The translations under genes were made by a program, and so were the position numbers. The notes beneath the pieces were generated by a model, which was not told the origin of the DNA, made no database searches, and worked only from the letters and a program-made list of their open reading frames with translations. 62,532 nucleotides of DNA. It comes from a virus. Its lineage: Duplodnaviria > Caudoviricetes. Every line of letters starts with the position of its first letter. Positions within the stretch are counted from its first letter, which is position 1. Location: the IMG/VR virus record IMGVR_UViG_3300048574_000038, positions 1 through 62,532 of that record. One strand, written 5' to 3'. This document shows, one piece after another, positions 277 to 57,105 of this stretch.

Positions 277-292
277 AGCCCCTCCCATGTTA

Positions 293-965: not shown

Positions 966-992
966 AAGGTGGGACACAAGATGTGCCCCACT
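963..992 (-). terminator. Intrinsic terminator-like hairpin
   Basis: - strand GTGGGGCACA-TCT-TGTGTCCCAC followed by CTTTT, just after the stop of 1009..1716. Confidence 0.5.
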
Positions 993-1008
993 TGTTTGAA
1001 ATTAGGTA

Positions 1009-1716: not shown

Positions 1717-1742
1717 AGTAACTCCCTACCTGAGTAAGATTG

Positions 1743-3680: not shown

Positions 3681-3697
3681 GTGTAACTCCCTTGTTG

Positions 3698-3955
3698 TTA
3701 ATGGTTTTTATTTTTGTCGCTACCACAGCCTTTGCCAGAGCATCTGCTGCACACGAGCAGAGACACAATAACCATGACTATGATAGCGATAGTCGCAGTG
3801 CTGATGAATACGTAAAACGCATCAAACATGCTGCTCATAACCTGTTCGTTGAACCGGCCAAGGAACATACCGAATGCGTAGACGGCAAGAAAAATGATAA
3901 CAGAGCCTACTTCAAGCTCCGCCAACAACACAATTGTCTTTCGGAGAGGGCACAT
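3698..3955 (-). CDS. Small two-TM membrane protein
   Basis: GGAGG SD before ATG at 3955; two hydrophobic stretches. Confidence 0.6.
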   Translation of the reverse strand: MCPLRKTIVLLAELEVGSVIIFLAVYAFGMFLGRFNEQVMSSMFDAFYVFISTATIAIIVMVIVSLLVCSRCSGKGCGSDKNKNH

Positions 3956-4184
3956 GATTTTCTTCCTCCACAGTGATCCATTTTGCTGAACCACGCAATC
4001 GTCTCTTGATGATTCGATTGGCTACAGGACAAAAGACTTCCACCTTGATAGCAATGCTCCTATCAAGGAGTCGCTTACCCTCTCGCATAGCACCCAAGAG
4101 AGTACGGTGGTACCGGTCAAACGTGCGTTCACGGCGCTGAATCTTGCCGACAACAAGCTTCGTGATGATAAGTCGGTATTCCAT
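3912..4184 (-). CDS. Small basic hypothetical protein
   Basis: AGGGAG SD before MEYRLIITK. Confidence 0.6.
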   Translation of the reverse strand: MEYRLIITKLVVGKIQRRERTFDRYHRTLLGAMREGKRLLDRSIAIKVEVFCPVANRIIKRRLRGSAKWITVEEENHVPSPKDNCVVGGA

Positions 4185-4206
4185 AGCCGTCTCCCTTGTA
4201 GCTAAG

Positions 4207-4479
4207 TTACTTGTTGTGGTGTCTCTTATGTAAAGTCTTTGCGCCTTTCTTTGTGACGCAATAGATCTTAACATCTGTGTAAATTCCATTACTGGAAACC
4301 ATAGCCAGAAGCATGCGCGATTCTTGAGCGGCGGCAATCGCATCACACGCTTCCGCAGTTTGCACAATTTCCAATCCGTCAGTGTGAAACTCTGGTTCTT
4401 GTTCAGCGATAGTGGCGGTACCGTCTGAACCCATGAGCATCACAATAAGAAGGAATGCAGATTTCATGCGAATGCCCAA
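4207..4479 (-). CDS. Hypothetical secreted or membrane protein
   Basis: Signal-like N-terminus; packed in the early operon. Confidence 0.55.
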   Translation of the reverse strand: MGIRMKSAFLLIVMLMGSDGTATIAEQEPEFHTDGLEIVQTAEACDAIAAAQESRMLLAMVSSNGIYTDVKIYCVTKKGAKTLHKRHHNK

Positions 4480-4766
4480 TGAATGAAGTCCGTTACAGGT
4501 TGATGGTACACAGCACCAAGAACGAAAACAATTGCTGCTGCGGCCAGACCTTTGAATATACCGTCCTCAGACTTGGCACACTCATGAAGGTAGGCATCTT
4601 CAACTGCGTCCATGTCTGCAAGCATAGATTGCCTGCGGTCGTGCATGATGGAAATGTATGTGGTGCACAGTTGCCGGTGAATAAGCAATGCAATCACAGC
4701 ATCACCAGATGCAAGAGCATTGGCAAACTTACGCTCGAGTTTCGTCACAGTGCGCATATCACGCAT
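4464..4766 (-). CDS. Hypothetical protein with C-terminal TM
   Basis: AGGAG SD before MRDMRTV; overlaps the stop of the upstream gene. Confidence 0.6.
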   Translation of the reverse strand: MRDMRTVTKLERKFANALASGDAVIALLIHRQLCTTYISIMHDRRQSMLADMDAVEDAYLHECAKSEDGIFKGLAAAAIVFVLGAVYHQPVTDFIHWAFA

Positions 4767-5163
4767 AAGAATCTCCTGAGATAGCGAAAGGGTACCCCAT
4801 GCACAGAAGTGGGTGGGCTTTCTTGTCCTCATGAATCGTGGCGATTACGCCGCGCAGGTATGTGCGGAACATACGAAGATCACTGTACTTGATCTTGTTT
4901 CCAACACGAGATACCCGATGCCGGACGACAATAACCAGACCGCCGTTGTCTTCCAACTGAACACTTGCAGTAGTTCCGAACTTACCGCGAGCCTTAAGCA
5001 AATACTTTGCTGCCCTTTCAGAGAACTCAAACAGAACGTACGGATGGTACCGTCTTCCGGGGTGGCCTGAGCAGCAGAAACGCGTGTGCAGACCGAGCAT
5101 ATTCAGGGCAATGATCTCCTGATATATGTAGCCGTCCAAGTGCACGTTAGGAAGTAAGCGCAT
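4759..5163 (-). CDS. Hypothetical protein with an LN-x-LGL-x-T-x-FCCSGH motif (TYW3-like signature)
   Basis: AAGGAG SD; motif ALNMLGLHTRFCCSGH...PYVLF. Confidence 0.6.
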   Translation of the reverse strand: MRLLPNVHLDGYIYQEIIALNMLGLHTRFCCSGHPGRRYHPYVLFEFSERAAKYLLKARGKFGTTASVQLEDNGGLVIVVRHRVSRVGNKIKYSDLRMFRTYLRGVIATIHEDKKAHPLLCMGYPFAISGDSYA

Positions 5164-5173
5164 CTCTTTCTCC

Positions 5174-5398
5174 TTATCCGTACAGATCAACGAGAATGCC
5201 AATCGTGCACAGAGCAGTAAAGACAGACAAGGCAGCATATGTCTTTTTAAACAAAAGCATGCTGTCTTTATAGATCTCTGGGTAGTCTTTCCTCAAAGGC
5301 ATGACGTTTAACAGCCAAGATACCGGAAGGCCAACTACTAAAGTAGCTACGCCACCTCCGGCAAAACCAGCTAAGCAAATTCTAAGTATCTCCTGCAT
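5174..5398 (-). CDS. Small membrane protein
   Basis: GAGGAG SD; two hydrophobic segments. Confidence 0.6.
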   Translation of the reverse strand: MQEILRICLAGFAGGGVATLVVGLPVSWLLNVMPLRKDYPEIYKDSMLLFKKTYAALSVFTALCTIGILVDLYG

Positions 5399-5600
5399 AG
5401 GTATTCTCCTCTACCATTCTGCGGTAGCGTCTTGCCCAAAGGAGCATACGAGCACGAGCCTGACGCATACGTTTGTATGCTGCTTCGAGCTTGGCATCAT
5501 AAGCATCGAGTTCCTGTTCCAATTGGCAGATTGTTTGAAGCATGTCGAAGCGTACGTACCTAAGGTTAGCTCTGCGCCGAGCGTGTGGCTTCACGCGCAA
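5382..5600 (-). CDS. Small basic coiled-coil protein
   Basis: GGAGG upstream; tightly packed ORF. Confidence 0.5.
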   Translation of the reverse strand: MRVKPHARRRANLRYVRFDMLQTICQLEQELDAYDAKLEAAYKRMRQARARMLLWARRYRRMVEENTYAGDT

Positions 5601-5919
5601 CCTCCGCAGGAATTATGGCAGTACGGGCAACACGTTCTTCCTTATTCGCATCGTGGTTAAGAGCAAACAACCACGTAGGTTCATTATGCGTACATGTTTG
5701 TACCTTCAACCAACGCCCTTGTCGCACATAAACACACAGCGTAGCACGGATAACACGAGGTTGCTTCTTGAGTTCGGATATTCTGGCATAAACTTCCGAC
5801 AAATTGCGCAGATATTCCCACGTAACTTTTTTGTTCTTGCCAGTAGGAATGCTGGTTCTCGGCATGACAGAATCGTGCTCTATCTTGAGAACCATTGCAG
5901 GAAAGGTTCTGTTCATCAC
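5566..5919 (-). CDS. Hypothetical protein
   Basis: ORF of 117 aa with a purine-rich leader, first gene of a packed cluster. Confidence 0.55.
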   Translation of the reverse strand: MMNRTFPAMVLKIEHDSVMPRTSIPTGKNKKVTWEYLRNLSEVYARISELKKQPRVIRATLCVYVRQGRWLKVQTCTHNEPTWLFALNHDANKEERVARTAIIPAEVAREATRSAQS

Positions 5920-6000
5920 CCACCTACCTAGTTAAAAGGTTATGTTCCTTGAAATAATAAAGCCACCAACTTTACGTTAGTGGCTCGATGTTGCAAGGAA

Positions 6001-7107
6001 TTATTCTACGTCCATCGGGGCGAAGTCGTTGTCCCTCGCGCCGTTCGTCTTACCCGGATGGTGCATCACACGGATTTTGCCTTCCGGCGGCCGCTTGTCT
6101 TCGTCGCTGGCGTGGCAAGTGCACACATGCTGCGGAGTTTCGGAATCATCCGCCTCCATCGGGTCAATGGCAGAAAGAAGTCGGAGAGATACGCGGGCTG
6201 CATCTTCCGCACTGATGCCGTCGATAACGATGGAAACACCACGCACAGCCATGTCGCCAGCACCAAGTTCATCCATTGTGATATCCAGCTTTGCCATGTT
6301 GTTCTCCTTCACAGGTTTGTAGGTGCGTGAAGCAAGCCAGTCGTATTCACCACGAAGTAAAAGAATATCTTTATCCTTCTGGTCAACGGTGTCGTGCAAA
6401 CTGTTGCACTCTTCTGTAAGCAGGTCGTTGCGCTGCTCCAGTTCCTTGATACGAACAGACGCAAGCCTCGCGTTGTGTTGGAGATTCTTGAGTGCTTCCA
6501 CGAGATACACCGGGTTAGTCCCGCTTGCTTTCAACTTGCGGAACTTGTTAACCAAGTGTTCCAACTTGTGCCTGTAACTAGCGGACATAAGGGACAAGTC
6601 TCTGTCCCGACGTTTGTGCGCTTGGCGTTGCCGTTCCAACTTGCTTTGCAACGCTGTGTTTTCCCGTTCAAGCTGACCAAGCCTGTGTTGGAGATCCTCA
6701 TTTTGTGCCTCAATAAATGTCAATCCGATATTGGGCACATTGCTTTCAGTGAGCAAAGCAAGTTCCTGCTCAAGTTGAGCAACCGTATCGAGAAGCTCCG
6801 CATTGCGATTGTTGCACTTCTCGCAGACGGTGTATTCCAACTGTTTGGGAGAACTTTCCGTGGGCAACTTCTGTCCAAACTGAAGAAACTTGCCTACTTC
6901 AGCATCCACTAACGCCACGAATTTGTCAAAAGCGCCGGATTCTTTGCTGACGATGTCGGGGATAAGTTCCCGTACACTTTCGTAGTCCAGTATCTGCTTA
7001 GCGAGAAGCAGCATGTTCTGCGCATGAGGGTAATCTTCCGCCAGTTTGTCAAGAATGTTGTTAGTAACACGCAGCGTCTCTTCCACGAGCGTTTCCAACT
7101 TTTCCAT
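6001..7107 (-). CDS. Coiled-coil protein (368 aa)
   Basis: AAGGAG SD; long heptad-rich region, CEKC motif; internal SD plus ATG at 6297. Confidence 0.8.
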   Translation of the reverse strand: MEKLETLVEETLRVTNNILDKLAEDYPHAQNMLLLAKQILDYESVRELIPDIVSKESGAFDKFVALVDAEVGKFLQFGQKLPTESSPKQLEYTVCEKCNNRNAELLDTVAQLEQELALLTESNVPNIGLTFIEAQNEDLQHRLGQLERENTALQSKLERQRQAHKRRDRDLSLMSASYRHKLEHLVNKFRKLKASGTNPVYLVEALKNLQHNARLASVRIKELEQRNDLLTEECNSLHDTVDQKDKDILLLRGEYDWLASRTYKPVKENNMAKLDITMDELGAGDMAVRGVSIVIDGISAEDAARVSLRLLSAIDPMEADDSETPQHVCTCHASDEDKRPPEGKIRVMHHPGKTNGARDNDFAPMDVE

Positions 7108-7127
7108 AATAGCTCCTTTGTTTTATT

Positions 7128-7483
7128 GGGCAGCCTTGCGCACGACTGCCCTAAAAACCAAGGATATTTTACGTTAATGAGTACCAACAAACTAGCAGGG
7201 AATTGCTAGACTTGGTAAATATCAGCCAACTGCTGTACATACAGAGTCCCAAACTCTGCGTTGCAACAGGCACAACACGGCGCATGGCACGTACACTAAT
7301 GTGTAGATAGCTGACTGTATTATGAATGTGGTGAACATGTGTTCCCATCCATCCCACAGCGGGGTAAGCCAGATACTAACACACTTGTACACGGCAGTAC
7401 GCATAATAGCTACTGCATACACAACCACTCCTTTGTTTTATGCAAGCCCCAACTCTAGGTCAGAGCTTGTATTAAAGCAAAGG
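7128..7483 (-). ncRNA. Possible structured RNA B or processing leader
   Basis: Hairpins GGGCAG/CTGCCC, ACCAA-CTAGCA/TGCTAG-TTGGT, CAGAG/CTCTG, GCAGTA/TACTGC and a long irregular stem at 7430-7483; ORFs here are unconvincing. Confidence 0.4.
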
Positions 7484-7519
7484 AATTGACCGAAGGGAAA
7501 CTAATTGACCGAAGGGAAA
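7484..7519 (+). repeat. Tandem 17-bp motif AATTGACCGAAGGGAAA (2 copies)
   Basis: Copies at 7484-7500 and 7503-7519; further copies at 10996-11012 and, inverted with 2 mismatches, at 9824-9840. Confidence 0.85.
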
Positions 7520-7528
7520 GGAAACAAG

Positions 7529-8224
7529 TTATGCCGCCTGCTTGTTAACCTGCAAGCAAGAGGCAATGGCCGCAACCACGCTTGCCATCATGGCGTTATT
7601 GTCGGCAACAGGAGAAAGCATTTTCACCACGTCTTCAAGAGGCTTGGGCAGAGGAGCCGCAGTACTGGAAGGCAGGTCAACGCCAAGCTCCTTTGCCTTC
7701 TTTTCAAGGCGAGAGAAGGAATCAAGAATGGCCTTCGCCTTGTCTTCCTGCGTCTTGGCGGCGTTCTTCGCTTCGCGTTCGGCCTTTTGTTCGGCCTTCA
7801 GGTTGTCGTACCACTTGCCCGCGCCAAGAACAGTGATGGCAATGGCGGACACAAAGGCCAGACATTCCTTGTCCACGTCAGACAGTTTGTTCGGGTCACG
7901 GCTGGACTCCCAAGCCTTGCCGCCGGACTTGTCCTTATAAATGGCCTGTGCGGCGCGGAAAGAGAAGACAACCTTCTTCTTGTCCTTGTCCCACATAACG
8001 GGAACGCCCTTGCGCGTCATGTACTCGCGCATGTAGGGCTTCATCTTGTCCGGCACGGCGGCAAGCAATTGGTTGCAGTATGTGGCGTTGCAATCACGAA
8101 TGGCACGTTCAACGCAGGGAAGCAGCAGGGTTTGCGCACCTTCCTGCATTTCCTTGACGGTTGCCGTGAACTTCGCCAGCTTGGAAACAAGATCACTTTC
8201 GCTCATAATGTACGCAGTGGCCAT
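7529..8224 (-). CDS. Early hypothetical protein (231 aa)
   Basis: GAGGAG SD; strong codon bias. Confidence 0.85.
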   Translation of the reverse strand: MATAYIMSESDLVSKLAKFTATVKEMQEGAQTLLLPCVERAIRDCNATYCNQLLAAVPDKMKPYMREYMTRKGVPVMWDKDKKKVVFSFRAAQAIYKDKSGGKAWESSRDPNKLSDVDKECLAFVSAIAITVLGAGKWYDNLKAEQKAEREAKNAAKTQEDKAKAILDSFSRLEKKAKELGVDLPSSTAAPLPKPLEDVVKMLSPVADNNAMMASVVAAIASCLQVNKQAA

Positions 8225-8253
8225 GGTGTATCTCCTCTGTATTAAATTGTTGT

Positions 8254-8269
8254 TGTTTCATGTGAAACA
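8254..8269. promoter_or_regulatory. parS-like palindrome
   Basis: TGTTTCATGTGAAACA, one mismatch from the chromosomal parS consensus TGTTTCACGTGAAACA. Confidence 0.75.
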
Positions 8270-8286
8270 TTGTTTAGTGACTAACC

Positions 8287-8334
8287 AAAAATAAAAACCG
8301 CTAGGTAAGACCTTTTGTCAAGGATACCTAGCGG
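8287..8334 (-). terminator. Intrinsic terminator
   Basis: CCGCTAGGTA...TACCTAGCGG stem followed by TTTTTATTTT on the - strand. Confidence 0.75.
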
Positions 8335-9014
8335 CTTGTATTTTGTTTTGTCTTTCCTGCCGTATCGTTGCTTCGCTAGAAACATCGTCTACGGCTACCT
8401 TTGAATCAAACGGATTTCGCCAGCCCATACTTTCGTTGCTGGTATTACACAAGCCCGTGTACTTGTGCTTTTACTGGCTATCTTTACAAGTAACCCCTTT
8501 TGCCTTTTATCAAGGCCAGCCTAGTGTTTGTGAAACACTAAACCGCGTTTCGGTTACTTGCTGGAAGCGTTGTTTCATGTGAAACGCATATTGTTTTCTC
8601 CGTAAAGAAAACTAACGTTCACTTAAAACGTACTTCCATCACGCAATCCCATTATGCTTATGCAAGGGCAATCCTTGCCATACTTGGGATATGCTATCCG
8701 CCGTATTGTCTCTTTATATGGCGCAATCTTGCGCGAGACTATCCCACTGCATTACGCTTTCTGAGTCTGCGCAATGTGCCAGTACAGCAGGAAGGCGGGC
8801 CAGTAACTAAGCATGTGCCTAGCTTGGCGGTCTTTACGGCAATGCAGTATTATGAGCGCTGCACCGTGTGACAATTCACACGCTAAGTATAGGGAAAAGT
8901 TAATCTAGTTAACCCTTTCGTTAATCCCTAACTTTTCGCCTTTTGTATCTTATGTGCGGCTTGCGCTGCACAACGTACTAAGGCTTGCGCTTGGTACTTT
9001 CGTACCTTCTCTTG
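8290..9014 (-). ncRNA. Candidate large structured RNA C (about 720 nt), bounded by promoter and terminator
   Basis: Starts just after the promoter at 9021-9049 and ends at the terminator; GGTAC-GAAA-GTACC and GC-GCAA-GC GNRA hairpins on the - strand; dense stems; no - strand ORF of 60 aa or more. Confidence 0.72.
8571..8586. promoter_or_regulatory. parS-like palindrome (second copy)
   Basis: TGTTTCATGTGAAACG. Confidence 0.7.
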
Positions 9015-9020
9015 ATAGTT

Positions 9021-9049
9021 ACCTTACACGAAAGCAAGGAACTTGTCAA
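9021..9049 (-). promoter_or_regulatory. Sigma70-type early promoter
   Basis: TTGACA-17bp-TAAGGT with TG upstream of the -10 and an AT-rich UP region. Confidence 0.75.
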
Positions 9050-9118
9050 GAAAAAACTTTATTTAATTTTCAGCGGGCTTGCGGCGCTTTGAGCTGCCAG
9101 CTACTGCCCTATGTGAAA

Positions 9119-9147
9119 ATCCTACTCTTTTGCGGCGGGCTTGTCAA
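9119..9147 (-). promoter_or_regulatory. Sigma70-type early promoter
   Basis: TTGACA-17bp-TAGGAT, A-tracts upstream. Confidence 0.75.
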
Positions 9148-9234
9148 CTACTTTTTTCACTTTTCAAAAACTTTCTTTTCTTGTATTTGCGGGTCAAATC
9201 TACTCTAGGTTGAGTGCCTACCCTGTTAGAAAAG

Positions 9235-9263
9235 AGATTAAAGAAAACTGGAAACAATGTCAA
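9235..9263 (-). promoter_or_regulatory. Sigma70-type early promoter
   Basis: TTGACA-17bp-TAATCT, AT-rich upstream. Confidence 0.72.
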
Positions 9264-9321
9264 GTAAAATTTTTGGGCTTGTCTTATTTAATGTAGCACA
9301 AGCCCTAAGCTACTGATATTG

Positions 9322-9807
9322 TTAGCTTTTTTCTTCTTGTCTTTTGCAATAGCGGCGAGCTATCACAAGATTGCATGCCCGCAAATGCCTTGCCTGCCGG
9401 ACATTATCCGCAGATACAGTGACCGTCATTGCGAGATTGTCACTTGTTTGGCCTATGTATATGGCCTTGCTGCGGCCTTTGCCTTGTGCAACGTCCATCC
9501 ACAAGGCGTTGCTGATTGTCTTGGCCTTGGATGCAATGCGGCAACCATTGTTTTTATACGTTCGCCGCGTGTTCTTTGCCGGTAATGTGATAACGTCCAC
9601 GCCCTCGATTGTTTCCACAATACACTTGCTCACATAGCGTTGCAATTTGTCGGCCTTGCGTTGTGCCTTGTCCTGCCATTCTTTGCCTTGCGCCATGAGC
9701 CGCATGGCCTCTCCGGCTAACTGCCTTGCTTCCTTGGCGGATTTGCCTTGCTTGCGATATAGCTTTATCAGCTTTTTGATATAGCCAGCCCTTTCGATTT
9801 TGTCCAT
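9322..9807 (-). CDS. Basic early hypothetical protein
   Basis: GAGGAGG SD before MDKIERAG; Lys/Arg-rich. Confidence 0.75.
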   Translation of the reverse strand: MDKIERAGYIKKLIKLYRKQGKSAKEARQLAGEAMRLMAQGKEWQDKAQRKADKLQRYVSKCIVETIEGVDVITLPAKNTRRTYKNNGCRIASKAKTISNALWMDVAQGKGRSKAIYIGQTSDNLAMTVTVSADNVRQARHLRACNLVIARRYCKRQEEKS

Positions 9808-9912
9808 TTTTTGCCTCCTCACTTTTCCCTTTAGTCAATTGTTGTCTATATAGATTGTTCTACCATAGCAAAGCACAAACTATACAGGCTTGTGCCTTGG
9901 CTGATAGAACAG

Positions 9913-10074
9913 CTAATAGTTGACAGTATGATTTGCACCGGGCATAAAATCGTATGCCCAATCTATGCCAGCACGCCATGCCCGCCAATGGGAGCCAAAA
10001 CATACAGATGCCGTGCTAAACCGCATATCGTTATGGGATACTGCCATGACGATACAAGAAAAGAAATTATCCAT
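9913..10074 (-). CDS. Small early protein (53 aa), absent from the ORF track
   Basis: GAGGTAGG SD, MDNFFSCIVMAV...TVNY*. Confidence 0.5.
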   Translation of the reverse strand: MDNFFSCIVMAVSHNDMRFSTASVCFGSHWRAWRAGIDWAYDFMPGANHTVNY

Positions 10075-10170
10075 TACCTACCTCGCAAGTTAATTGTTAA
10101 TCCAATCCAAGGCGCAAATATTCCAGCTACTTGCGCCTTGTATGATTCAACAATCGTAATTCCAGCGGCC

Positions 10171-10335
10171 TTACTCCGCATTGCGTCTGGTAATGTTGTC
10201 TATTTCAATCTGGATTGCCCTTTCTTCGGCCTCTTCACGCTCCTCGGCAAGCCGCCTGCGTTCTTCGGCTGATTGTTCAACCCGTTGTGACCATTCCAGC
10301 AAGAGAGATATGACATAATCGTTTGTATTGCTCAT
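10171..10335 (-). CDS. Small acidic helical early protein
   Basis: AGGGAG SD before MSNTND. Confidence 0.65.
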   Translation of the reverse strand: MSNTNDYVISLLLEWSQRVEQSAEERRRLAEEREEAEERAIQIEIDNITRRNAE

Positions 10336-10899
10336 GGTATTTGCTCCCTTTAATCGCAAAGGTTATTAAGCAGCAAGCTAGCTGATTGCATAGCCAAGTT
10401 TGCCTGAAACATACTCGCGCATTCATTGTAACGGCGTTGCGTCCAGCTATACGTTGTGTGCATGTGCAAGCGTTGCATACGGATTGCTCCAAGAGACATT
10501 GTTTCGAGGCGGGCTTGATCGTAGCGTTCGCGTCCGTAGTATGTGGCCATGTGCATTCTCCTGATGCCTTGCGGCGGTTAAGGTGAACTTGAACTGAAAA
10601 CAATTTAGCAAAGTTTTAAAAGAAAGTAAAGTTTTAATAAAATCAATTAGTTAGCTTTAAGTTCTTGTTGGAGCCTATGCTTCTAGCGAAGCGACGATGG
10701 TACTTGTCTTTCCATTGGTATCGTATTGCAGACTATGTGCCGATTCCGGGTAATTTTTGGGTGCAATTTCGCTTGTTTACGTCCAAATACCTGTAATTAT
10801 TGACAAAAAGTCACAAAAGTGAAGAATTTCACAAGGGGGAGAGGGGTTATAGGGGTACCAGTGGACACGAGGGTGACGGCTACGGGTGCAAGGAAAGCC

Positions 10900-11330
10900 A
10901 TCTCTGTGTATATTTATAAAATTTAGATTGATATTTATATCACCTCTATGTATATTTACTAAAGTTAGCTGTATATTTACAAAACTTAGATAAATAATTG
11001 ACCGAAGGGAAAAAGAAAAGGCCACCAATCTTTTCCTGATAATTCGGAGAAAACTGATGGCCAGTAGTGGGTATGAGAAGTACCAAAGGTACCATGAAGT
11101 TCTTTAAGCTACTTAAAGTAGTTTAATTATTTATAGTACTATATGTAGATAATAGCCTAGAACATATAGTATTATTATAATAAAATATAATATATTAAAG
11201 TATTTTAGTACTTTATGTAGATAAATTAACTATAAGTACTTGACATACTTATAGTATGTATTATAAGTACTTTAAGTTATTTAAGATAAATTTAAAGATC
11301 ATAATAGCCCGCCTTAAGTTTCTTAATTTC
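10900..11330. other. AT-rich non-coding region with short repeats and palindromes (candidate genome end or origin)
   Basis: TGTATATTTA x3 (10907, 10949, 10970), AGTACT/AAGTACTT palindromes, G-rich tract at about 10834-10890 just before. Confidence 0.5.
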
Positions 11331-11406
11331 CGAACTACGGTTATACTGCTTTTTGTTTTTAAAGAAGATAGTTGGTTGAACTGCCCTTTTACGAACTTTA
11401 ATATCT

Positions 11407-32705: not shown

Positions 32706-35700
32706 ATGGCTATTGATTTGAGCACAGATGCCCTTCTGTCTTCAGCTAACCCTGCTGTGAATAACTTAGGTACATTTATGCAAGGGTACGATGCTGCTAG
32801 AGCAGATCAGACAGCCGCTATGTTGGCTGCACAAGAGGCATACAAAGGAAGGCAAGGGCCGAACCCTAATGCTGCTGCTTATTTAAAAACAGCATTTGAG
32901 AATGCTCAATATCCTGCTGCCTTTATGCCGCAGGAACCTACTGCTCCTAAAGCATCATTTACAAACTCTGTTGGACGTGGTGTTGACCAACTTCAACAGT
33001 CTTTGTATGGTTTCGCTGCGCAAGTCGGTGATATGGCTGGCTCCAAAGATCTTCGTAACTGGGGTCTGCTTGGAGCCTACAATAACGAAGATCAGATTAA
33101 TGCTAATCCAAGAGCAGTACCGTCTATTAGTAATATTAATAGCATGGGTGACTTTGGTAACTGGGCTGTTGAAACACTCGGTGAACAGATTCCGAATCTT
33201 GGTTTAAGTCTTGGTACTGCTGCTCTTACAGGTGGTGCTAGCCTTGCTGCTGGTCTTCCTGCTGCCGCTGCTCGTGGTCTTGGTACTGCTGGCTTTTATG
33301 GTACAGTGATGGCACCAGAGTCTGGTCAAGCATATCTTACAGACTTTGAAAAACATGGTAGTAATACCAGCCCTTGGAAAGACCTTGGCGTTGGTGCTAT
33401 CAACGCTGCTCTTGAGACTGCCTTCTCTGTTGAAGGCGGCCTGATGCGTCGCATCCTTGGACATCCTGTGTCTGAAGCTGCTAACGAAACAGCTAAGAAT
33501 ACTGTAGGTAGTTTCCTTCGTAACCGGGCAATGGGTGGTTTGCGAGAGGGTGCTACGGAAGGCGCACAAGAGCTTACACAGATGCTCAACGAACGTATGC
33601 AAGATAACAACTTTGGTGATATGTTCAACAAAGATGATGTCATGCGTATTCTTGATTCAGTTGCTGCTGGTGCTGTTCTTGGTGCCCCGCTTAGTGTCTT
33701 TGAAGGTGGTAAGCGTAAAGGTGCACAAGTTACTCCGGACACAACTAACGTTGATCCTACAAATAGAACATTTGGTCAGGATTGGGTTAGCGGTGTAACA
33801 CCTTCTGCAACTCCTGAAGGCTTTGCTACTACTCCAGATTCTTTTCTTGCTAGTGCTCCTAGAATAGCTGAGTTCTCGAACTCGCTAGATAACAACTTCT
33901 TAGATCAAGCACAACCTGTAGTTAATCCTGCACCGTCTGCTCTTGTACGAGAAGCTGGCTTTGCTCCTTTTGAAGCTACACCTGATTCTTTCCTGCAACA
34001 GCAACAATCTGTTACTCCTTACCAAGAACGTGCTCCTTTCCAGAGTAGCATGGATAACGGCTTCCTTAATCAAGCTACAGCTTCTCCTGCTGGCTTTGAA
34101 CGTACACCAGACCAGTTCCTTCAGAATACAGCTTCTGTTGTTCCGAACATTACTACACCTCCGACTACTGCGGAGATTATGTCTGGTCAAGCTGCGGCAC
34201 TTGGCTCTTCTCGTGATACAGCTCTGAAGACAGTTTCTAATAACTTTCTCCCTCTGATTAATAATCAAGTTGAGACAGCTAACCGTGCACAAGATCAGGT
34301 AGCCATGATGATGGCTAACAGTGTTGCACGTAAGAGTGAAATACTTCAACGTATACAGACTGCTGATCCTATTCAGCAACGCCAGCTTAATAAGATTATG
34401 TCTGGTCTTGATGAACAAGTACAGCAAGCTAAAGACAGCGTTGTTAAAGAACAAGCTAAACTCGCTGCTATGCGTCAACAGTTTACTGATGCACAAGAGC
34501 GCGTCAATAAGTTGTATGATGCTCGTGAACGTAAACTCAGTGGTAATGCCCTTACTGCACAAGAGACTGCACGTCAACAGTTAGTTACGAAGGATGCTAA
34601 TTACTTTACTCGTATGCAAGCTATTGCTGACGATACTAAAGTACTTGGCTCTCGTATAGCGAATAATATTCAAGAATCTCTTGATGCTGCACGTAATAAG
34701 GTACTTGAACTTCGTAATCTTGCAGATAATCCTCGTAATGGTTTATCTCCTGACGAGATCCGCCGTGTACGTAAACAACTCCGTGCAGCTGAAGCTACAC
34801 AACTTGATCTGTCCGGTAAAATGAAAAAAGCTTCAAAGCTTGCTGATACACTTATGCAGAGGACTACAGATCCTGCAAAGTTGTATAACAGCATTCTCGA
34901 GGCTCAGACAGACTTTGATCAGCTCAGGTCGATTGGTTCTGTTGCACAAAGTGTTGGTGCTGAATCTGTTACATCTCAAATTGAAGCTCCTGTTGTTGAT
35001 AAAGTAGCAGAGCTTACTAAGACTATTGAACAGAATCGTGCTGAGCAAGCTCGGCAAAAAGCTGCTGAACAGGCTACGGGGGAGACCCAAAAAGCTCCGG
35101 CTCAGCAAGAAGCTACTGCACCGAAAGCTGAAAATGCCCCCGCGCAAATTGCTCAAACTCAATCGTCAGTGCAGAACGTAACTGAACAACCTACTGCTCC
35201 AGTTCAACAAACACAGACAGTTCCTACACAAGAGACAGGTACACGACAAGTTAGCCCATTGGCTCGGCGATTTGCTGAAGTTCGTGCGGCGCAAACAGCA
35301 GCCCAAGAACAAGCAAGAACTCGTCCTGCTAATATGCAAGTTGTTAGTGCGGTCTCTAAGCACATTACGAGTTTTACAAGTAAATTCAAAGGTCTTGCTG
35401 GAAAGATATCTCAAGTGTGGCAAGCACCTGCGGAACACCTCAATGACCTTGGTTTCATAGATCAAAACGGTAATATCGTACTTATCGCCTCTAATCTTGA
35501 AAACTATGCAAGGACTAATGGTATAAGCCTTAAGGATGTTGTCACGGCAACAATTCAACATGAAGGTATCGGCCATTATGGATTACGCACTGTTTTCGAT
35601 AATGCAGGACTTACTTCCTTCCTTACAAACGTTAGGGATAGCTTATCTTCTAGTCCGGCATGGAAAGCTCTCGAAGCAAGTAGCGAAGCTTTCAGAAATC

Positions 35701-38700
35701 AGTCTCCTATTAGGCAAGCAGAGGAGTTCTGTTCCCTTATCGCAGAACGATCCATTAATGCAGCTAATCTTGGAACACCAGAAAGATCTGCGTGGACTAA
35801 ACTTAAAAGCATAGTAAAGTCTGCTTTGACTAAACTCGGATTCGTTTCTGAAAATAAGCTTCTTGGTAAGCAGAACGCCAACATCACAGAAAAGGATATC
35901 GTTGATATTCTTACGAAAGGTGCTCAAAATTTAACTGATGCAGGTGCTCAACGCATAACTGACATCAACGAGTCGATGGGTAGAAGTGGTGATATCACTA
36001 CAGAAAATACTCCTGCTGCTCGTACAGTTAGGGCTACCGAAGAGTCTAATAAGACTATTGCGGATAAGTTTAAGCATGCTATGGACTTAGTAATGAGTCC
36101 GGATAAACGTTCAGATGTTCGTAACTACTGGTACGATAGACTTGTAGATGCTAATGATCCTGTTCGTCGCATGGTTGATTCGTTAAAAGCACTTGGTTAC
36201 AAAGAAGATGGCACGTCTCGTGTCAACATGTTTAATAACGTATTTAAACATCTTCAAGTGTTGAATAACAAGACAGTCATTCAGCTTGACCAGCATCGTG
36301 CGAAGTATGTTCAACCTCTACTTGAGGCTATTAATAAGCTTAAGCAACCGGGTGAAGATGCAAGTATAGCTTATGCTAAAGCTGCTGACTATCTTGAAGC
36401 ACAGCATGCTCTTGAACGTAATAAGTTTGCAAGAGAGAATAGTAAGAATGCTGGTAATCATCCAGTGTCTGGTATCTCTGACGAACTTGCACGTAAGACT
36501 ATTGAGCAACTTAGTTCCCCGCAGATGGATGAAGTATCTCGTAAGATGCAAGAACTCAATGAAGCTCGTCTGCGTATGATTGAAGAGTACAAACTTATTC
36601 CTAATGCTAAAGAGGTAGTTAATAACTGGCGACAAGCTTACCAATATTATGTACCTTTTAAGGGTTGGGAAGATGTAGTTAAAGTACTCGATCCTTCTTG
36701 GTATAAGAGTGATACTCGCAAGAATATTAGTACACCTTCTGCACAGAAGACTATTACTAAACGTGCGATTGGTCGTGAAGGTGAAGCTCACAACCCTGTA
36801 GCTCACGGTATCATGCAGATGTATGATGTTGTGTATCTGGCTAATAAGACAGAAGCTGGCAGGTCTTTGCTTCAACTTGCACGAGACAATGCTGATGCTT
36901 CTGATATCCTTGAACTTGTTAAGACAAAGAAGACTGATCCTGAAGAAGCATTTGGTCTGCGTCCCCGTGTGGACAGTAAGACTGGTGAAATAACTTGGAT
37001 TAACAACACGCATTCTGCTGTTGGTGAAATGGTTAATACAGTAGCTGTCATTGACGAACAAGGTAACATGCAACGTGTTCTTGTTAAAGACGAGAATGCT
37101 GCACGAGCTATGCGTGGTGAAAATATCCTACAGTCTCACCCAATCATTAAAGCTATTGGTAACATACAGAGTGTGATGGCTAGGTACGTAACTGCACTTA
37201 ACCCGCTGTTCTGGCTCCGTAACCCATTCAGGGATACTGTTACCGCAGCTTTGAATATGAAGTCTGTAGAAAATGAGTTAAGGAACCTTGGCATCCCTTC
37301 TTCTAAGGATATTGCAAAGTCCCTTATGTTCAAAGGTCTTATGGGTTCTTTTAGTAAGAACTCTGTAAGACAGGCTTTGTTTGACTACTATCGTACACAC
37401 GATATGTCTTTCAGTAAGTTCTCTCCTGAGATTCAAAGGTACATGGGAGACTTGAATAAGTTTCTTGAATACGGTGGTCAGACGGAATACTTTACGCAGA
37501 CATCCTACAATGCCATTCAGAAAGATATAGTGTCAGCCCTTCGTGATTTAAGTCCTAACGGACGGCTTCAAAAAGGTCAAGCATTAGCACGAAATATGGT
37601 TGAATATATGAGTCACATATCTGACTCTCTCGAAAATATGACTAGGTACATTGCTTTTAAAGAAATGGTTGATGCCATTAAAGCTAACAACAAGCAACTT
37701 AGTCCCGGTCTGTGGCAACGTGCAGATGGTAGACTTCTTCATGAGAATGAAATCTACTCTCGTGCTGCTAACGTAGCTCTTAACCTTACGGTTAACTTTG
37801 GCATGAAGGGTAGTTGGGCACCAGTAATCAACTCTCTGTATATGTTCGCTAGCGCTAGTATTGCTGGTAACGCACGTATGCTTGAAACGATCATGCGTAA
37901 GAATCCTGCTACAGGCAAGTTAGATGTTCCGAACTTTGCTAAGTTTATGATGGTGCCTGTTGTAGCTTATGCCGCGCAAGCTATGCTCTGTCGAGCCTTA
38001 ATGCCTGACGATGATGATGGTATTAATAAGTATGATAAGATTCCGGATTACGAGAAGAACTCGAACATGATTATTCCCGGCCCGGATGGATCACACATTA
38101 CAGTACCTCTTCCTTTTGGTTACAACTTCCTGTGGACTGCTGCAAGAAATATGATTGACGTGGCTTATGGTAAAGCTAATGGCGTATCTGGCCCGTCTGT
38201 TACGAAAGCAGCTTGGTCTACACTGATGTCTGCATTTGATACATTCAATGCTACAGGTCAACATGAGGAAGGACTTAACATGTTCATTCCCTCTGTTGTC
38301 AGACCTTTCTGGCAACTTGCAGAGAACAAGAACTTTGCTGGTAATCCTATTAAACCTGAAGGCAACGAATACGTAAAGGGTGAAGTTCCTGAACACCAGA
38401 AGTACTGGAGTACACAGAATGAGTCTGTAGTAAAGCTCTGCAAGGGTCTTTACCAAGCTACAGGTCTTGATGTGTCTCCTGAAACTCTCGAACATCTTGT
38501 TACATCTTACACAGGTGGTCTTGGTAAAATCTTTACTCAGACTCTTGCTCGTGTAGACGACTGGCAACGTGGAAAGCCTCTTGACATTGGTAGACTTCCC
38601 GGTGTTAACGTGTTTGTTAAAACGCCGCAAGATAGTGACACAAGTGCTGTATTCTCGAAGCTTCGTACACAGGTGCTCACTCAGAACACTGCTGCTGAAG

Positions 38701-38966
38701 AAGCTAAGATGGATAGGACACTTCCAATGGAAGAACGCCTGCGTATTCAAAAAGAGAATGCTGCTGGCACTAAACTTAAGAGTTCCTTGGATAGTATTCA
38801 AAACACTCTCAATAACCTGCGTCAGCAAGAACGAGCACTTGATAAACAAGATATCTCGAATGACGTTAAGCAACAACGGTTGGAAGCAATCAAAGCTGCA
38901 AAGACACGTACAATGATGCGCTTTAATAAACTTGCTATTTCAGCGGGTATTACAGACATTCAATAA
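32706..38966 (+). CDS. Large polyvalent internal virion protein (2086 aa) with zincin-like HExxxH and LPD38-like C-terminal domain
   Basis: EGATEGAQE N-terminal region, coiled coils, HEGIGHYGL, C-terminal PLPFGY...ENKNFAGNPI...SPETLEHLVTSYTGGLG. Confidence 0.8.
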   Translation: MAIDLSTDALLSSANPAVNNLGTFMQGYDAARADQTAAMLAAQEAYKGRQGPNPNAAAYLKTAFENAQYPAAFMPQEPTAPKASFTNSVGRGVDQLQQSLYGFAAQVGDMAGSKDLRNWGLLGAYNNEDQINANPRAVPSISNINSMGDFGNWAVETLGEQIPNLGLSLGTAALTGGASLAAGLPAAAARGLGTAGFYGTVMAPESGQAYLTDFEKHGSNTSPWKDLGVGAINAALETAFSVEGGLMRRILGHPVSEAANETAKNTVGSFLRNRAMGGLREGATEGAQELTQMLNERMQDNNFGDMFNKDDVMRILDSVAAGAVLGAPLSVFEGGKRKGAQVTPDTTNVDPTNRTFGQDWVSGVTPSATPEGFATTPDSFLASAPRIAEFSNSLDNNFLDQAQPVVNPAPSALVREAGFAPFEATPDSFLQQQQSVTPYQERAPFQSSMDNGFLNQATASPAGFERTPDQFLQNTASVVPNITTPPTTAEIMSGQAAALGSSRDTALKTVSNNFLPLINNQVETANRAQDQVAMMMANSVARKSEILQRIQTADPIQQRQLNKIMSGLDEQVQQAKDSVVKEQAKLAAMRQQFTDAQERVNKLYDARERKLSGNALTAQETARQQLVTKDANYFTRMQAIADDTKVLGSRIANNIQESLDAARNKVLELRNLADNPRNGLSPDEIRRVRKQLRAAEATQLDLSGKMKKASKLADTLMQRTTDPAKLYNSILEAQTDFDQLRSIGSVAQSVGAESVTSQIEAPVVDKVAELTKTIEQNRAEQARQKAAEQATGETQKAPAQQEATAPKAENAPAQIAQTQSSVQNVTEQPTAPVQQTQTVPTQETGTRQVSPLARRFAEVRAAQTAAQEQARTRPANMQVVSAVSKHITSFTSKFKGLAGKISQVWQAPAEHLNDLGFIDQNGNIVLIASNLENYARTNGISLKDVVTATIQHEGIGHYGLRTVFDNAGLTSFLTNVRDSLSSSPAWKALEASSEAFRNQSPIRQAEEFCSLIAERSINAANLGTPERSAWTKLKSIVKSALTKLGFVSENKLLGKQNANITEKDIVDILTKGAQNLTDAGAQRITDINESMGRSGDITTENTPAARTVRATEESNKTIADKFKHAMDLVMSPDKRSDVRNYWYDRLVDANDPVRRMVDSLKALGYKEDGTSRVNMFNNVFKHLQVLNNKTVIQLDQHRAKYVQPLLEAINKLKQPGEDASIAYAKAADYLEAQHALERNKFARENSKNAGNHPVSGISDELARKTIEQLSSPQMDEVSRKMQELNEARLRMIEEYKLIPNAKEVVNNWRQAYQYYVPFKGWEDVVKVLDPSWYKSDTRKNISTPSAQKTITKRAIGREGEAHNPVAHGIMQMYDVVYLANKTEAGRSLLQLARDNADASDILELVKTKKTDPEEAFGLRPRVDSKTGEITWINNTHSAVGEMVNTVAVIDEQGNMQRVLVKDENAARAMRGENILQSHPIIKAIGNIQSVMARYVTALNPLFWLRNPFRDTVTAALNMKSVENELRNLGIPSSKDIAKSLMFKGLMGSFSKNSVRQALFDYYRTHDMSFSKFSPEIQRYMGDLNKFLEYGGQTEYFTQTSYNAIQKDIVSALRDLSPNGRLQKGQALARNMVEYMSHISDSLENMTRYIAFKEMVDAIKANNKQLSPGLWQRADGRLLHENEIYSRAANVALNLTVNFGMKGSWAPVINSLYMFASASIAGNARMLETIMRKNPATGKLDVPNFAKFMMVPVVAYAAQAMLCRALMPDDDDGINKYDKIPDYEKNSNMIIPGPDGSHITVPLPFGYNFLWTAARNMIDVAYGKANGVSGPSVTKAAWSTLMSAFDTFNATGQHEEGLNMFIPSVVRPFWQLAENKNFAGNPIKPEGNEYVKGEVPEHQKYWSTQNESVVKLCKGLYQATGLDVSPETLEHLVTSYTGGLGKIFTQTLARVDDWQRGKPLDIGRLPGVNVFVKTPQDSDTSAVFSKLRTQVLTQNTAAEEAKMDRTLPMEERLRIQKENAAGTKLKSSLDSIQNTLNNLRQQERALDKQDISNDVKQQRLEAIKAAKTRTMMRFNKLAISAGITDIQ

Positions 38967-47345: not shown

Positions 47346-47972
47346 TTAAGCAACCAGACCTTGCTCATTGTATTTACCTACACGATTGAGAAGCCATCCA
47401 CGGACATACTTACGGTAATCCGAACGACCAGAATTAGAGTTGCCAAGATTAATATACCAACTAACCTGCAACCCATCCATAGCCTTTCGGAGAACTTCTG
47501 TGTACTTGGGATTGTTACCAACATCTGCAAGACGTTGACGTGTAGCCGGGCCAACAGCCCCATCTACAACGAGATCACTACCGAACTGGTAGTTGTAATT
47601 GAGAGCATTGAGAGCCTGCTGCATAAGCTGTGTAGTTTTACCTACGCCAAGATTAACAGACTGGTCGAATATCTCATAAGCAAGACTGTAATCATTAATA
47701 GAGTCAAGTCCAAACTTGTCCCAAAAATTATATTTGTACCAAGATTCTCGAAGCTCGGCAATACGCTGATCTCCAGAGAGTGCATTAATGAATGCTGTGG
47801 AACCAGCACCGAACTGTGACTTGTAGCTATCAACAATAGCCCAACCAGCCCAGTTAGGGAAATTATTACGAGAGATACCAAAGACTGTTTCGCCACCAGT
47901 ATCATTCGCATCATTATCGTAGACACCTTCGATGCCTACAACTTGAGCATAACTAATCTTAAAATTTGACAT
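47346..47972 (-). CDS. Endolysin, glycoside hydrolase family 108 with peptidoglycan-binding domain
   Basis: EGVY.ND.ND.GGET.FGIS, FD.SVNLG, LQ.ALN, VDG.VGP.T, GWL.NR. Confidence 0.9.
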   Translation of the reverse strand: MSNFKISYAQVVGIEGVYDNDANDTGGETVFGISRNNFPNWAGWAIVDSYKSQFGAGSTAFINALSGDQRIAELRESWYKYNFWDKFGLDSINDYSLAYEIFDQSVNLGVGKTTQLMQQALNALNYNYQFGSDLVVDGAVGPATRQRLADVGNNPKYTEVLRKAMDGLQVSWYINLGNSNSGRSDYRKYVRGWLLNRVGKYNEQGLVA

Positions 47973-47993
47973 ACCTTACCTCAGATAAAAATA

Positions 47994-48618
47994 ACACTAG
48001 CTAGAGAACAATCTGTAGCAGCAAGCCATTTCAGGCTTTCCATTACATAATCACTCCCTAGCTAGTGTCTAGACCCAAGGTGCACCCGATGTGCAATGTT
48101 ACCACCTACGTGGCTGCAACCAGTTGGTAGAGACTGGCTGGAAATTTAACACGGTACCGTTTGCGATCGTACTCGTTGGTATGCCTGTACTATTACTAAC
48201 AACGATTTAGCTAACAACAGTACTTAGTTGTTGGTATGCTTCCCAACAACACTCGGATAGTGTTATCGACGAGACACATTATTAAGGTTGTGTAACCCAA
48301 ACACAGCAGTGCGTCCCTTGCGTGGAGGGACATACACCTACACATGTACGATATGATAATCGGTTAGCTGTTGATCACCGAGGTACAAGAGCTAGCGAAC
48401 TCTCTTTTAGCAGCCGTGTACCAGTAGGCTGGTGGATCTTACGCTATATCTATGATGTATCCACTACCATCACAGTTTGAACATTGGTGCGGGGCTTCGT
48501 TACTTCCCCTATCTTCTCCGAAGAATTTCTGGAATAGCACCATCGTCCGGCTGATACATTCAAACGAAGTCCAACCCTCACAGCTTTGGTTGGTTGCACT
48601 GTAGCCTATTATCTAGGC
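47994..48618 (-). ncRNA. Candidate large structured RNA F (about 625 nt)
   Basis: No ORF of 60 aa or more within it; more than a dozen stems, e.g. ACACTAGCTAG/CTAGCTAGTGT extended by several G-U pairs on the - strand, GTTTGAA/TTCAAAC enclosing TGGTGC/GCACCA. Confidence 0.72.
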
Positions 48619-48620
48619 AG

Positions 48621-48851
48621 CTAAAACGAGAGTTGGAAGTTCTCTCGTATAAATTTGTAGGCATCCTCACCGTCCAACTCATACAACTTGGCAACGATGT
48701 CTTCCAAACTTACCATCTTTTCCAGATGAGAAGCGTTGTAGAACGCCTGTCCTACGCGTTGCCCCTCATACTTACCGTTAGCAACGTCTTGCTTAAACTG
48801 TATGTACGAAGGGCCATGCAACAGAGGTCTTTGTTCATTTTGTATAAACAC
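48621..48851 (-). CDS. Hypothetical protein
   Basis: QRVGQAFYN motif; abuts the upstream gene. Confidence 0.6.
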   Translation of the reverse strand: MFIQNEQRPLLHGPSYIQFKQDVANGKYEGQRVGQAFYNASHLEKMVSLEDIVAKLYELDGEDAYKFIRENFQLSF

Positions 48852-49268
48852 TTATGCAGCCTCTGCAAAGTCCACACCACCAGTAGTGAACGCCTGCTTG
48901 ATAGCGGCGGCCAACGTAGTGATGGTCTGGTGAGGCAGCTTGAGATCGCAGATAGAGTTGATGGCTTCAATCGTCTCGTGAACGAAGGAAGTCTCGCACA
49001 CATCTTTGTAATTCTCGTCGTGCCAGTTAGTAATCGCGTTCTCACGAACGGAGAACTTGCCAAGAACATAGGAGTTCTTTACAGGAATGGTGTTTTCACA
49101 ACCACAAGCCGGGCAAGCCTTGTCTTCACTGCCGAAAGGCACGGGAAACTCAAGGTGAGCACCGTTAAACATGCACACAGGGCATGTATGCTTCTGGTAG
49201 ATAGGCTTGTCAACAATGGACACGCCCACTTCCTGACCAAGGATTTTCATAGATTTGGGGTACTTCAT
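48852..49268 (-). CDS. Zincin-like protein with Zn-ribbon insert
   Basis: GGAGG SD; P.S.KILG, CPVC/CPAC, SFVHETIEAI. Confidence 0.7.
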   Translation of the reverse strand: MKYPKSMKILGQEVGVSIVDKPIYQKHTCPVCMFNGAHLEFPVPFGSEDKACPACGCENTIPVKNSYVLGKFSVRENAITNWHDENYKDVCETSFVHETIEAINSICDLKLPHQTITTLAAAIKQAFTTGGVDFAEAA

Positions 49269-51109: not shown

Positions 51110-51111
51110 AC

Positions 51112-51510
51112 ATCTGGTAGGATAACCTGTTGTGGACTTTTGCTGGATCACACTCCTTCCAGTTATCCTACCAGTTCACCAAGCACAACGCTTGGATAAA
51201 TTCCTCCACCTAACTAGCGCCCTCACGTTACTAGTTACTAGTCAGATGGAGGCACGGCCCTTACAAGGAGGGAGAGTAAGGAGGCTTGCCGTGTAATTTG
51301 TTGGCTACCCAGACCGCCGAGACAGGGTAGCCATTCGTCCATGCGAGGGAGTAGGCACACGACGAAAATTTGTGGCACTAGCAACATGCTACGAGGCTAT
51401 CCTCCTTGTCGATTATACATGTCACTGTGCCAGTAGTTCAGTTTTAACAGCCAGTTATTATCAAACGCCGTACTGCGGTGTCCGGAACATACCGAACTAA
51501 CTGAACAATA
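51112..51510 (-). ncRNA. Candidate structured RNA G (about 400 nt) filling the tRNA-Thr/tRNA-Gln spacer
   Basis: Eight back-to-back hairpins; + strand A-C mismatches become G-U pairs on the - strand (51203-51252, 51373-51432); complementary loops. Confidence 0.8.
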
Positions 51511-51513
51511 AAA

Positions 51514-56726: not shown

Positions 56727-56737
56727 AAACTAATACC

Positions 56738-56837
56738 TTTAAAGTTTATTAAGCTTAATATATATATATATATATATATTAAAGTTATTTAAAGCTAATA
56801 TTATATATATATATATATATATATTAAAGTATTTAAG
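56738..56837. repeat. Duplicated (TA)10-11 microsatellite unit
   Basis: TTAA(TA)10TTAA palindrome at 56755-56782 and (TA)11TTAAAGT at 56802-56830. Confidence 0.9.
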
Positions 56838-57105
56838 TTAGTTTAATAAACTAAATTTTCTTTGCTTCTTTCTTTTGTTCGAAGCTTTTTAGTTCAAAAA
56901 CCAACGAAAACACAACCTCGCAGCAGACCCTAGTTGGGAATTGCCCAAAGTGCGTTCATAAAAGATAGGGTCAAATGCTCAATAGACAAGGTGGGAAGTT
57001 GAAAGTAACTCCTGCACAATCAACTTCCGCATCTTGTTTGCGTGGGATTCTTCATGGGCTAGGCCACAAGCCCCTTTAGCAGGGTAACAAGTTCCGATAA
57101 TCACC

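Follow-up and report, generated by a model that had tools for sequence, protein, structure and literature searches.

On the minus strand, the 414 nt next to the endolysin gene (48386-47973) form a conserved structured unit, which we propose with moderate confidence, from folding predictions, to be a cis-acting mRNA leader that would block translation of the endolysin in read-through transcripts, possibly together with RNase III cutting or transcription termination. A leader delaying endolysin expression was among the readings offered by the original prediction, and the computations support it: the endolysin Shine-Dalgarno (SD) sequence is predicted to be paired in every tested transcript reaching 48100 or beyond, and the proximal 414 nt are conserved in close relatives.

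The window, i.e. the whole stretch of DNA analysed (62,532 nt), is an entire IMG/VR virus record of 62.5 kb, estimated to be 94% complete. Its plus-strand arm (~12.4-40 kb) carries terminase, portal, major head, tail-fibre and internal-virion genes, and its minus-strand arm (62.5 to 40 kb) carries the genes for primase, helicase, DNA polymerase, ligase, three tRNAs, ThyX, exonuclease, endolysin and a T7-type endonuclease I. SD sequences at gene starts are of the GAGG/AGGU type. The virion arm also encodes a 2086-aa protein (32706-38966, +) that matches PHROG 14770 and 616 (unknown function) and possesses an LPD38 'large polyvalent protein' domain. The left 11 kb (1-11400) have a G+C content of 0.42-0.55 compared with ~0.42 elsewhere and contain several gaps of 420-1100 nt; all 8 of the 8 proteins tested from this part are without a PHROG or Pfam match. 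Sequence near-identical to the window occurs in wastewater, sludge and bioreactor runs, and 20 of the 24 listed runs (12 studies) contain part of the stretch.

The minus-strand order is 138-aa ORF (49268-48852), 76-aa ORF (48851-48621), a 648-nt gap (48620-47973) and endolysin (47972-47346). CxxC...CxxC motifs can be read in the sequence of the 138-aa protein (48852-49268, -), whose family is small, with 43 representatives at E ≤ 0.001; H97, E98, E101 and H113 are invariant. Its AlphaFold model reaches a pLDDT of 95.9; Foldseek against the PDB returns no match at E ≤ 0.001, and ESM Atlas scores are 0.85 at most. Any resemblance, to the minimal metalloproteases Wss1 and IrrE/PprI, is weak, and scanning 36 members of the family gives single weak matches only. 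Neither the 138-aa nor the 76-aa protein has a Pfam match, and the 76-aa ORF (48621-48851, -) weakly matches PHROG 15753, to which no function is assigned there. The 138-aa neighbour was considered as a regulator and set aside, with no lead from Pfam, ESM Atlas or Foldseek under these thresholds.

Each of the six reading frames of the gap contains 8-14 stops, and the mixture of TAA, TAG and TGA in all of them rules out stop-codon recoding or a hidden gene. A plus-strand ORF of 39 aa (48091-48210) across the core was likewise rejected; it is broken by a 20-nt insertion in L008, a 1967-nt metagenome contig with a 98% identical endolysin, and by the loss of 1 nt at 48130, which contigs from three runs show. 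One frame of L008 stays open for 18 codons into the 414-nt unit, and the same frame is closed just upstream in the window; tblastn with the peptide of this frame gives a single 15-residue match (E 0.006) in the window and the loci. A pseudogene remnant may be the origin of the 5' boundary of the unit.

The features of the gap and of the endolysin gene are, 5' to 3' on the minus strand:

48604-48618, minus strand: small hairpin GCCUA-GAUAA-UAGGC from the fold, just past the stop of the 76-aa ORF.
48387-48603, minus strand: variable distal part, unconserved and without significant structure; probably a dispensable spacer or remnant.
47973-48386, minus strand: conserved structured leader unit of 414 nt; conservation with L008 and with contig 12 of X19 starts at 48386.
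48378-48385, minus strand: distal anti-SD candidate UACCUCGG at the 5' edge of the 414-nt unit; partner of the SD in the RNAalifold consensus and in the minimum free energy (MFE) structure of L008.
48252-48258, minus strand: 5' strand of P1, AUCCGAG, predicted to pair with CUUGGGU (48079-48073) and to close a 186-nt six-hairpin domain.
48227-48250, minus strand: hairpin Ha (GUUGUUGG / CCAACAAC), a perfect 8-bp stem; variable, and the stem of the switch in the original prediction.
48187-48223, minus strand: hairpin Hb, 14 bp; the sole helix with informative variation.
48101-48176, minus strand: most conserved core, with Hc (48176-48151), H1 (48140-48117) and H2 (48114-48101); 3 substitutions in 80 aligned columns against L008.
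48073-48081, minus strand: local anti-SD ACCUUGGGU, overlapping the 3' strand of P1; pairs with 47986-47978 in the MFE structure and by pairing probabilities.
47993-48069, minus strand: long hairpin of ~33 bp with three 1-nt bulges and the apical loop UGAAAU.
47985-47994, minus strand: U-rich run UUAUUUUUAU at and after the 3' foot of the long hairpin, with the look of a terminator tail as read from the sequence.
47978-47986, minus strand: AUCUGAGGU, which carries the endolysin SD GAGG (47982-47979); the AUG lies at 47972-47970.
47346-47972, minus strand: endolysin gene, 208 aa, with Glyco_hydro_108 and PG_binding_3 domains (Pfam E 2.9e-15 and 3.3e-09) and a match to PHROG 315 endolysin (E 5.2e-25).

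The seven stems from which the block had been recognised are, at the coordinates given for them, perfect Watson-Crick complements without exception (7/7), and GTTGTTGG (48227), CCAACAAC (48243) and CTAACAAC (48196 and 48211) are present. The same positions hold four 8-mer words of the form C[CT]AACAAC (48196, 48211, 48227 in inverted orientation, and 48243), spaced at 15-16 bp. G-U pairs lengthen the previously described 11-bp stem into the long hairpin on the minus strand only, and its lower stem is predicted to consist of ~21 continuous pairs including G-U. Comparison of the block with the other gaps of the window yields three 12-nt chance matches only.

Folding of the whole gap reaches z -5.8 on the minus strand (0/20 shuffles), compared with z -3.6 on the plus strand. 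The strength is unevenly distributed: 48286-48620 has z -1.5, with 8 of 100 shuffles folding equally well, 48069-48285 has z -3.1 (2/200 shuffles), and the 3' hairpin alone (-41.6 kcal/mol) has z -4.35 (2/200), or z -4.57 (0/200) with its basal helix included. The conserved 414 nt (47973-48386) fold at z -6.34 on the minus strand (0/100) and at -3.16 on the plus strand, and the homologous unit of L008 at z -3.03. In a GC-corrected scan with 300-nt windows, 47801-48200 ranks 5th-6th on the minus strand, below the tRNA region. The block is real, about two thirds of it stands out from chance, and the relevant strand is the minus strand. The original prediction had described a single structured block of 625 nt; of this, the gap without a usable frame stands (47973-48620), whereas the distal ~230 nt are variable and show no significant structure. 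Elsewhere in the window, the 404-nt gap between tRNA-Gln and tRNA-Thr (51110-51513, -) folds more strongly than the endolysin leader (-156.8 kcal/mol, z -6.94, 0/100 shuffles) and has no Rfam match at gathering score; according to this fold, it is a second candidate for a structured RNA, next to tRNAs.

Accessibility of the endolysin ribosome-binding site (RBS) was computed with 30 nt of coding sequence added and with the 5' end of the RNA varied. For all seven 5' ends from 48620 to 48100 the SD region is predicted to pair with ACCUUGGGU (48081-48073) at a probability of 0.87-1.00, with P > 0.96 for the SD, and the mean unpaired probability of the SD is 0.003-0.034; it rises to 0.29-0.39 only for RNA starting at 48075 or 47993. 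The endolysin SD takes third place for occlusion in a ranking of 67 gene starts (mean unpaired 0.046 vs ~0.42 mid-list), two other gene starts being predicted to be as occluded. The 9-bp SD helix is predicted to stack beneath the 33-bp hairpin (48069-47993), across an internal loop with UUAUUUUUAU. In the MFE structure of the L008 homologue the SD is paired too, but with the distal anti-SD UACCUCGG, an 8-bp match of a kind estimated to occur by chance about once per 640 nt. CUUGGGU is predicted to pair either with AUCCGAG, forming P1, or with the SD region, and the two pairings are mutually exclusive; the SD-occluded state is favoured over the P1 state by 9.0 kcal/mol in the window and by 3.3 kcal/mol in L008.

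The endolysin sits amid the replication-gene arm and for this reason is probably part of a long minus-strand message. In such a read-through transcript the SD would be locked in the 9-bp helix (ACCUUGGGU with AUCUGAGGU) under the 33-bp hairpin, and ribosomes could not start. Because the SD-occluded state is the predicted ground state in both sequences, we can only infer how the site would be released. A second event could be the cleavage of the long hairpin by RNase III; alternatively, the competing P1 could close the six-hairpin domain with its conserved core, and a factor could stabilise P1; release might also come with a shorter transcript. The hairpin and its U-run may, in addition, halt some of the read-through transcription. 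The long hairpin with UUAUUUUUAU was not listed by the consensus terminator scan; its stem foot is A/U- and G-U-rich and the hairpin is far longer than usual. A scan for promoters of the sigma-70 type finds no minus-strand site in 47973-48620, and likewise none in 48000-48700; the phage's own promoter type may differ. Against a reading of tight control stands the point that a soluble endolysin without a nearby holin may not need to be tightly controlled.

Conservation of the leader was followed in phage records, related virus contigs and metagenome contigs. Blastn of the gap against 50,697 phage records gives no match, and against five related virus records only a 16-nt match (E 0.028); exact-pattern scans of viral and genome contig collections return no homologue of it, and a search for the 76-aa protein in viral contigs found nothing. 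The full leader sequences compared are two, those of the window and of L008. In L008 the leader is kept from exactly 48386 downstream, and the sequence upstream is unrelated. Positions 1-17 of this contig resemble a random-amplification primer and ~1700-1967 are unrelated to the phage; from these sequences, the contig ends are probably chimeric.

Comparison of the window with L008 gives 25 differences over the 627 nt of the endolysin gene and 21 over its 209 third codon positions, against 6 over 204 in leader columns 225-448, which comprise Hc, H1, H2, Hd, the anti-SD, the long hairpin and the SD (Fisher p 0.0045 vs third positions). The long hairpin is unchanged bar one substitution just outside it. 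Other parts are hypervariable in L008: one hairpin is replaced (19 of 31 positions different), and the Ha/Hb region shows 13 differences in 50 positions besides a 24-nt deletion that removes exactly the GUUGUUGG/CCAACAAC hairpin. With this deletion and a 20-nt insertion between H2 and Hd in L008, hairpins are gained or lost as whole units. The alternative partners of GTTGTTGG had been taken as a hint at a switch, an idea that the comparison does not support: L008 lacks its hairpin (48250-48227) through a clean deletion, and another relative has many indels in the repeat region. The claim is accordingly narrower than at the outset, as variable filler makes up about one third of the flagged block and the GTTGTTGG switch is unconserved.

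Variant wastewater contigs come from four runs (X1, X2, X8 and X19), and all of these are contig data. The X1 contig contains 48251-48622 (372 nt) with 4 differences and is the sole near-identical copy of the distal part. A contig of X19 joins 48294-48386 to 48600-48622 through 110 other letters, and a contig of X8 possesses 48102-48273, with an indel-rich repeat region, then 10 letters in place of 48274-48603, then 48604-48622 and 21 letters in place of the 76-aa gene. The small hairpin is kept with its flanks replaced, since the X8 and X19 contigs hold 48600/48604-48622 with 0 other letters. The sides of these joints are short (19-23 nt) and call for caution, yet they are chained inside single contigs. 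The 76-aa gene is accessory, with 21 letters instead of it in contigs of X8 and X19 and no such gene in L005. Contig depth leaves some bins between 48434 and 48865 uncovered (X2, X8, X19) and gives a higher figure for 48110-48163, but cannot rank the parts. As far as these sequences go, the junction is prone to recombination, and the distal ~230 nt together with the 76-aa ORF belong to its variable cargo, outside the element.

More distant relatives lack the block. The four virus contigs L003-L006 (exonuclease 60-61% identical) possess the 138-aa homologue followed by the endolysin, without the 76-aa gene or the block, and their spacer of ~132 nt (e.g. L005 7452-7583) contains an unrelated hairpin of its own of ~27 bp. 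Among the 39 predicted pairs of this hairpin, 8 show one-sided and 0 show two-sided changes, and 3 have one broken or gapped cell. An indel in L004 indicates that the annotated GTG start is wrong, and the likely start is the ATG at L005 7584. The endolysin homologues of L002 and L009-L013 possess no long leader; upstream ORFs (at least 60 aa) stop 1-25 nt before the endolysin ORF. Conservation of the leader is so far established, by sequence comparison, within one narrow lineage of uncultured wastewater phages only.

Covariation was assessed between the window and L008. In Hb, L008 has 9 substitutions at 28 stem positions and 13 of the 14 pairs are kept, the changes comprising 1 compensatory replacement of C-G by U-A, 5 one-sided changes and 1 C.C mismatch. 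Hb includes four G-U pairs; in a transcript of the plus strand, A.C mismatches would stand in their place, and likewise in place of the G-U pairs that extend the long hairpin. RNAalifold gives 117 pairs with 3 two-sided, 9 one-sided and 0 broken changes, for a structure fitted to both sequences. When the structure from one sequence is tested on the other, changed pairs are still paired in 9 of 21 cases (window structure) and 10 of 21 (L008 structure), and in slid controls 4-9 of 17-22 stay paired; the covariation support is consequently local and not global. No change between the two sequences falls in the SD helix, P1 or the long hairpin, and for P1 the identical AUCCGAG strand in L008 leaves no room for a covariation test. 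The covariation evidence is thin, as it stems from one hairpin in two sequences.

The first among the alternatives, which we nevertheless hold to be unlikely, is that only the long hairpin matters, for intercistronic processing or stability, e.g. as an RNase III site, and that the rest is a neutral recombination spacer whose conservation reflects recent descent or recombination. The mosaic of the junction, with 21 letters in place of the 76-aa gene and 10 or 110 letters in place of the distal part in relatives, suits this reading, and so do the absence of both the 76-aa gene and the unit from L005, the retention of just a hairpin at this place in L003-L006, and the missing global covariation. 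The lower stem, with ~21 continuous pairs, also comes close to the 22 bp given for an ideal substrate of E. coli RNase III (PMC3867540). The core speaks against a neutral spacer: in a 2277-nt contig of X19 (contig 9), 48100-48148 is nearly intact, showing 1 difference and 1 gap, where its endolysin part differs at 53 of 278 positions (19%) and the flanks are unalignable, the intervening 476 nt being of the 'same length, diverged'. Moreover, the last 204 leader columns vary less than neighbouring third codon positions (p 0.0045), and the middle part without the hairpin still has z -3.1.

Quite unlikely is a stable non-coding RNA in its own right, ~300-650 nt long and with the long hairpin and U-run as its intrinsic terminator, that acts in trans or resembles ROOL, GOLLD or OLE. 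The strong minus-strand fold, the multi-hairpin layout, highly conserved in the core and variable in the peripheral hairpins, and the hairpin followed by UUAUUUUUAU are what such an RNA would display, and large ornate RNAs are known in phages and bacteria (PMC12286853). The original prediction had named an independent large RNA of the ROOL or GOLLD kind and an Rfam search as a check; this idea finds no support in the database and promoter scans. Rfam 15 at gathering score recovers 3 tRNAs only from the whole window, and at E ≤ 10 the interval 47800-48800 gives two chance-level matches, neither of them a large RNA, namely a Na+ riboswitch (18.4 bits vs a cutoff of 40.5, inside the endolysin gene) and mir-379. 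The promoter scan finds no promoter-like site on the minus strand within 48000-48700, and the sequence above 48386 differs among relatives, so that any promoter must be within the unit. The ~10 nt from the U-run to the SD leave no space for an endolysin promoter, and a full terminator would therefore silence the endolysin; the hairpin is, besides, absent from the list of the consensus terminator scan. Membership in ROOL, GOLLD, OLE or other Rfam 15 families, or in riboswitches or T-boxes, is not supported.

A further reading, which we consider distinctly improbable, makes a sensor of the six-hairpin domain (48258-48073, 186 nt), whose core Hc/H1/H2 is near-invariant. A phage or host factor, or a small molecule, would bind and stabilise P1, drawing the anti-SD off the endolysin RBS, and the timing of lysis in a virulent phage would depend on an undescribed ON-switch of translation.

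Very improbable, finally, is an element acting as DNA (an origin, a protein-binding array of the four C[CT]AACAAC words, or a phage-specific promoter), which the four 8-mer copies (48196, 48211, 48227 inverted, 48243) and the very high core conservation, also suitable for a protein-binding site, would suit, but against which stand the repeat region being the least conserved (2 of the 4 words deleted in L008, indel-rich in the X8 contig), the reliance of the long hairpin and Hb on G-U pairs present only in minus-strand RNA, the fold asymmetry (z -6.3 vs -3.2), a core that is single-copy in the genome (no second copy in the window at up to 3 mismatches) and a better origin candidate in the AT-rich inverted-repeat region 56733-56848. 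This region is part of a gap of 379 nt that follows the helicase gene downstream, and is an AT-rich (TA)n tract in which direct and inverted repeats are nested, their arms reaching 36 nt; from its sequence it is a candidate for an origin or promoter region.

Few cases are understood in which a phage silences a lysis enzyme encoded in early or middle transcription units, T4 gene e being the textbook example. A 414-nt cis-acting leader that buries the endolysin RBS would, if true, be a far more elaborate version of this theme, and it would also be a candidate new RNA family of uncultured wastewater phages. If the competing helices are a real switch, the timing of lysis would be linked to a sensed signal.

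Several known systems share parts of this arrangement. A group I or group II intron was rejected: Rfam gives no match, and the endolysin is complete from residue 1 (GH108 profile from position 2) with its own SD and ATG. In riboswitch-type expression platforms, the 3' strand of the aptamer's P1 can double as an anti-SD. CUUGGGU is predicted to have this double role here, in P1 of the 186-nt six-hairpin domain or in the pairing with the SD, the two being mutually exclusive; unlike riboswitches, the leader has no Rfam riboswitch or T-box match, and the gene context implies no ligand. The late leader of phage lambda (pR'-qut-tR', 6S RNA) stands upstream of the lysis genes S, R and Rz. It is comparable in being a non-coding leader with a hairpin and U-run at its end, directly upstream of a lysis gene, but here no Q-like antiterminator is recognised and no promoter is found, and the downstream genes are replication and not late structural genes.

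Phage T7 possesses RNase III processing hairpins between genes, and its lysozyme gene 3.5 lies among DNA-metabolism genes beside endonuclease I. The present phage likewise has a long irregular intercistronic hairpin in a replication arm with an endonuclease I homologue, exonuclease, DNA polymerase and a lysozyme-type gene, and the predicted ~33-bp hairpin, whose lower stem spans about two helical turns, offers double-stranded RNA of the extent expected of a T7-type RNase III site. It differs from T7 in that no T7-type RNA polymerase gene is recognised among the proteins scanned, and a far greater length and a conserved non-hairpin core set the element apart from a T7 site. With ROOL, GOLLD and OLE (PMC12286853) it has in common the size class of 400-650 nt, the many hairpins and the phage context, but it matches no Rfam model, occurs in one narrow phage lineage and abuts an SD predicted to be occluded.

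The closest parallel in working is T4, in which an mRNA helix sequesters the SD or AUG of gene e (lysozyme), soc, 49 and I-TevI in early read-through transcripts; the hairpins involved are short and local, and late promoters with their start within the 5' strand relieve them (PMC3014915). As in gene e, a lysis enzyme gene lies where earlier transcription reads in, and its RBS is predicted to reside in a stable helix with the upstream leader, for 7 of 7 upstream 5' ends and in the MFE structure of L008. Unlike in gene e, this helix lies under a 33-bp hairpin that ends a 414-nt multi-hairpin leader, the sigma-70-type scan finds no internal promoter, and the two share no sequence similarity. By analogy, the element resembles the T4 e leader in its presumed working, but is far larger.
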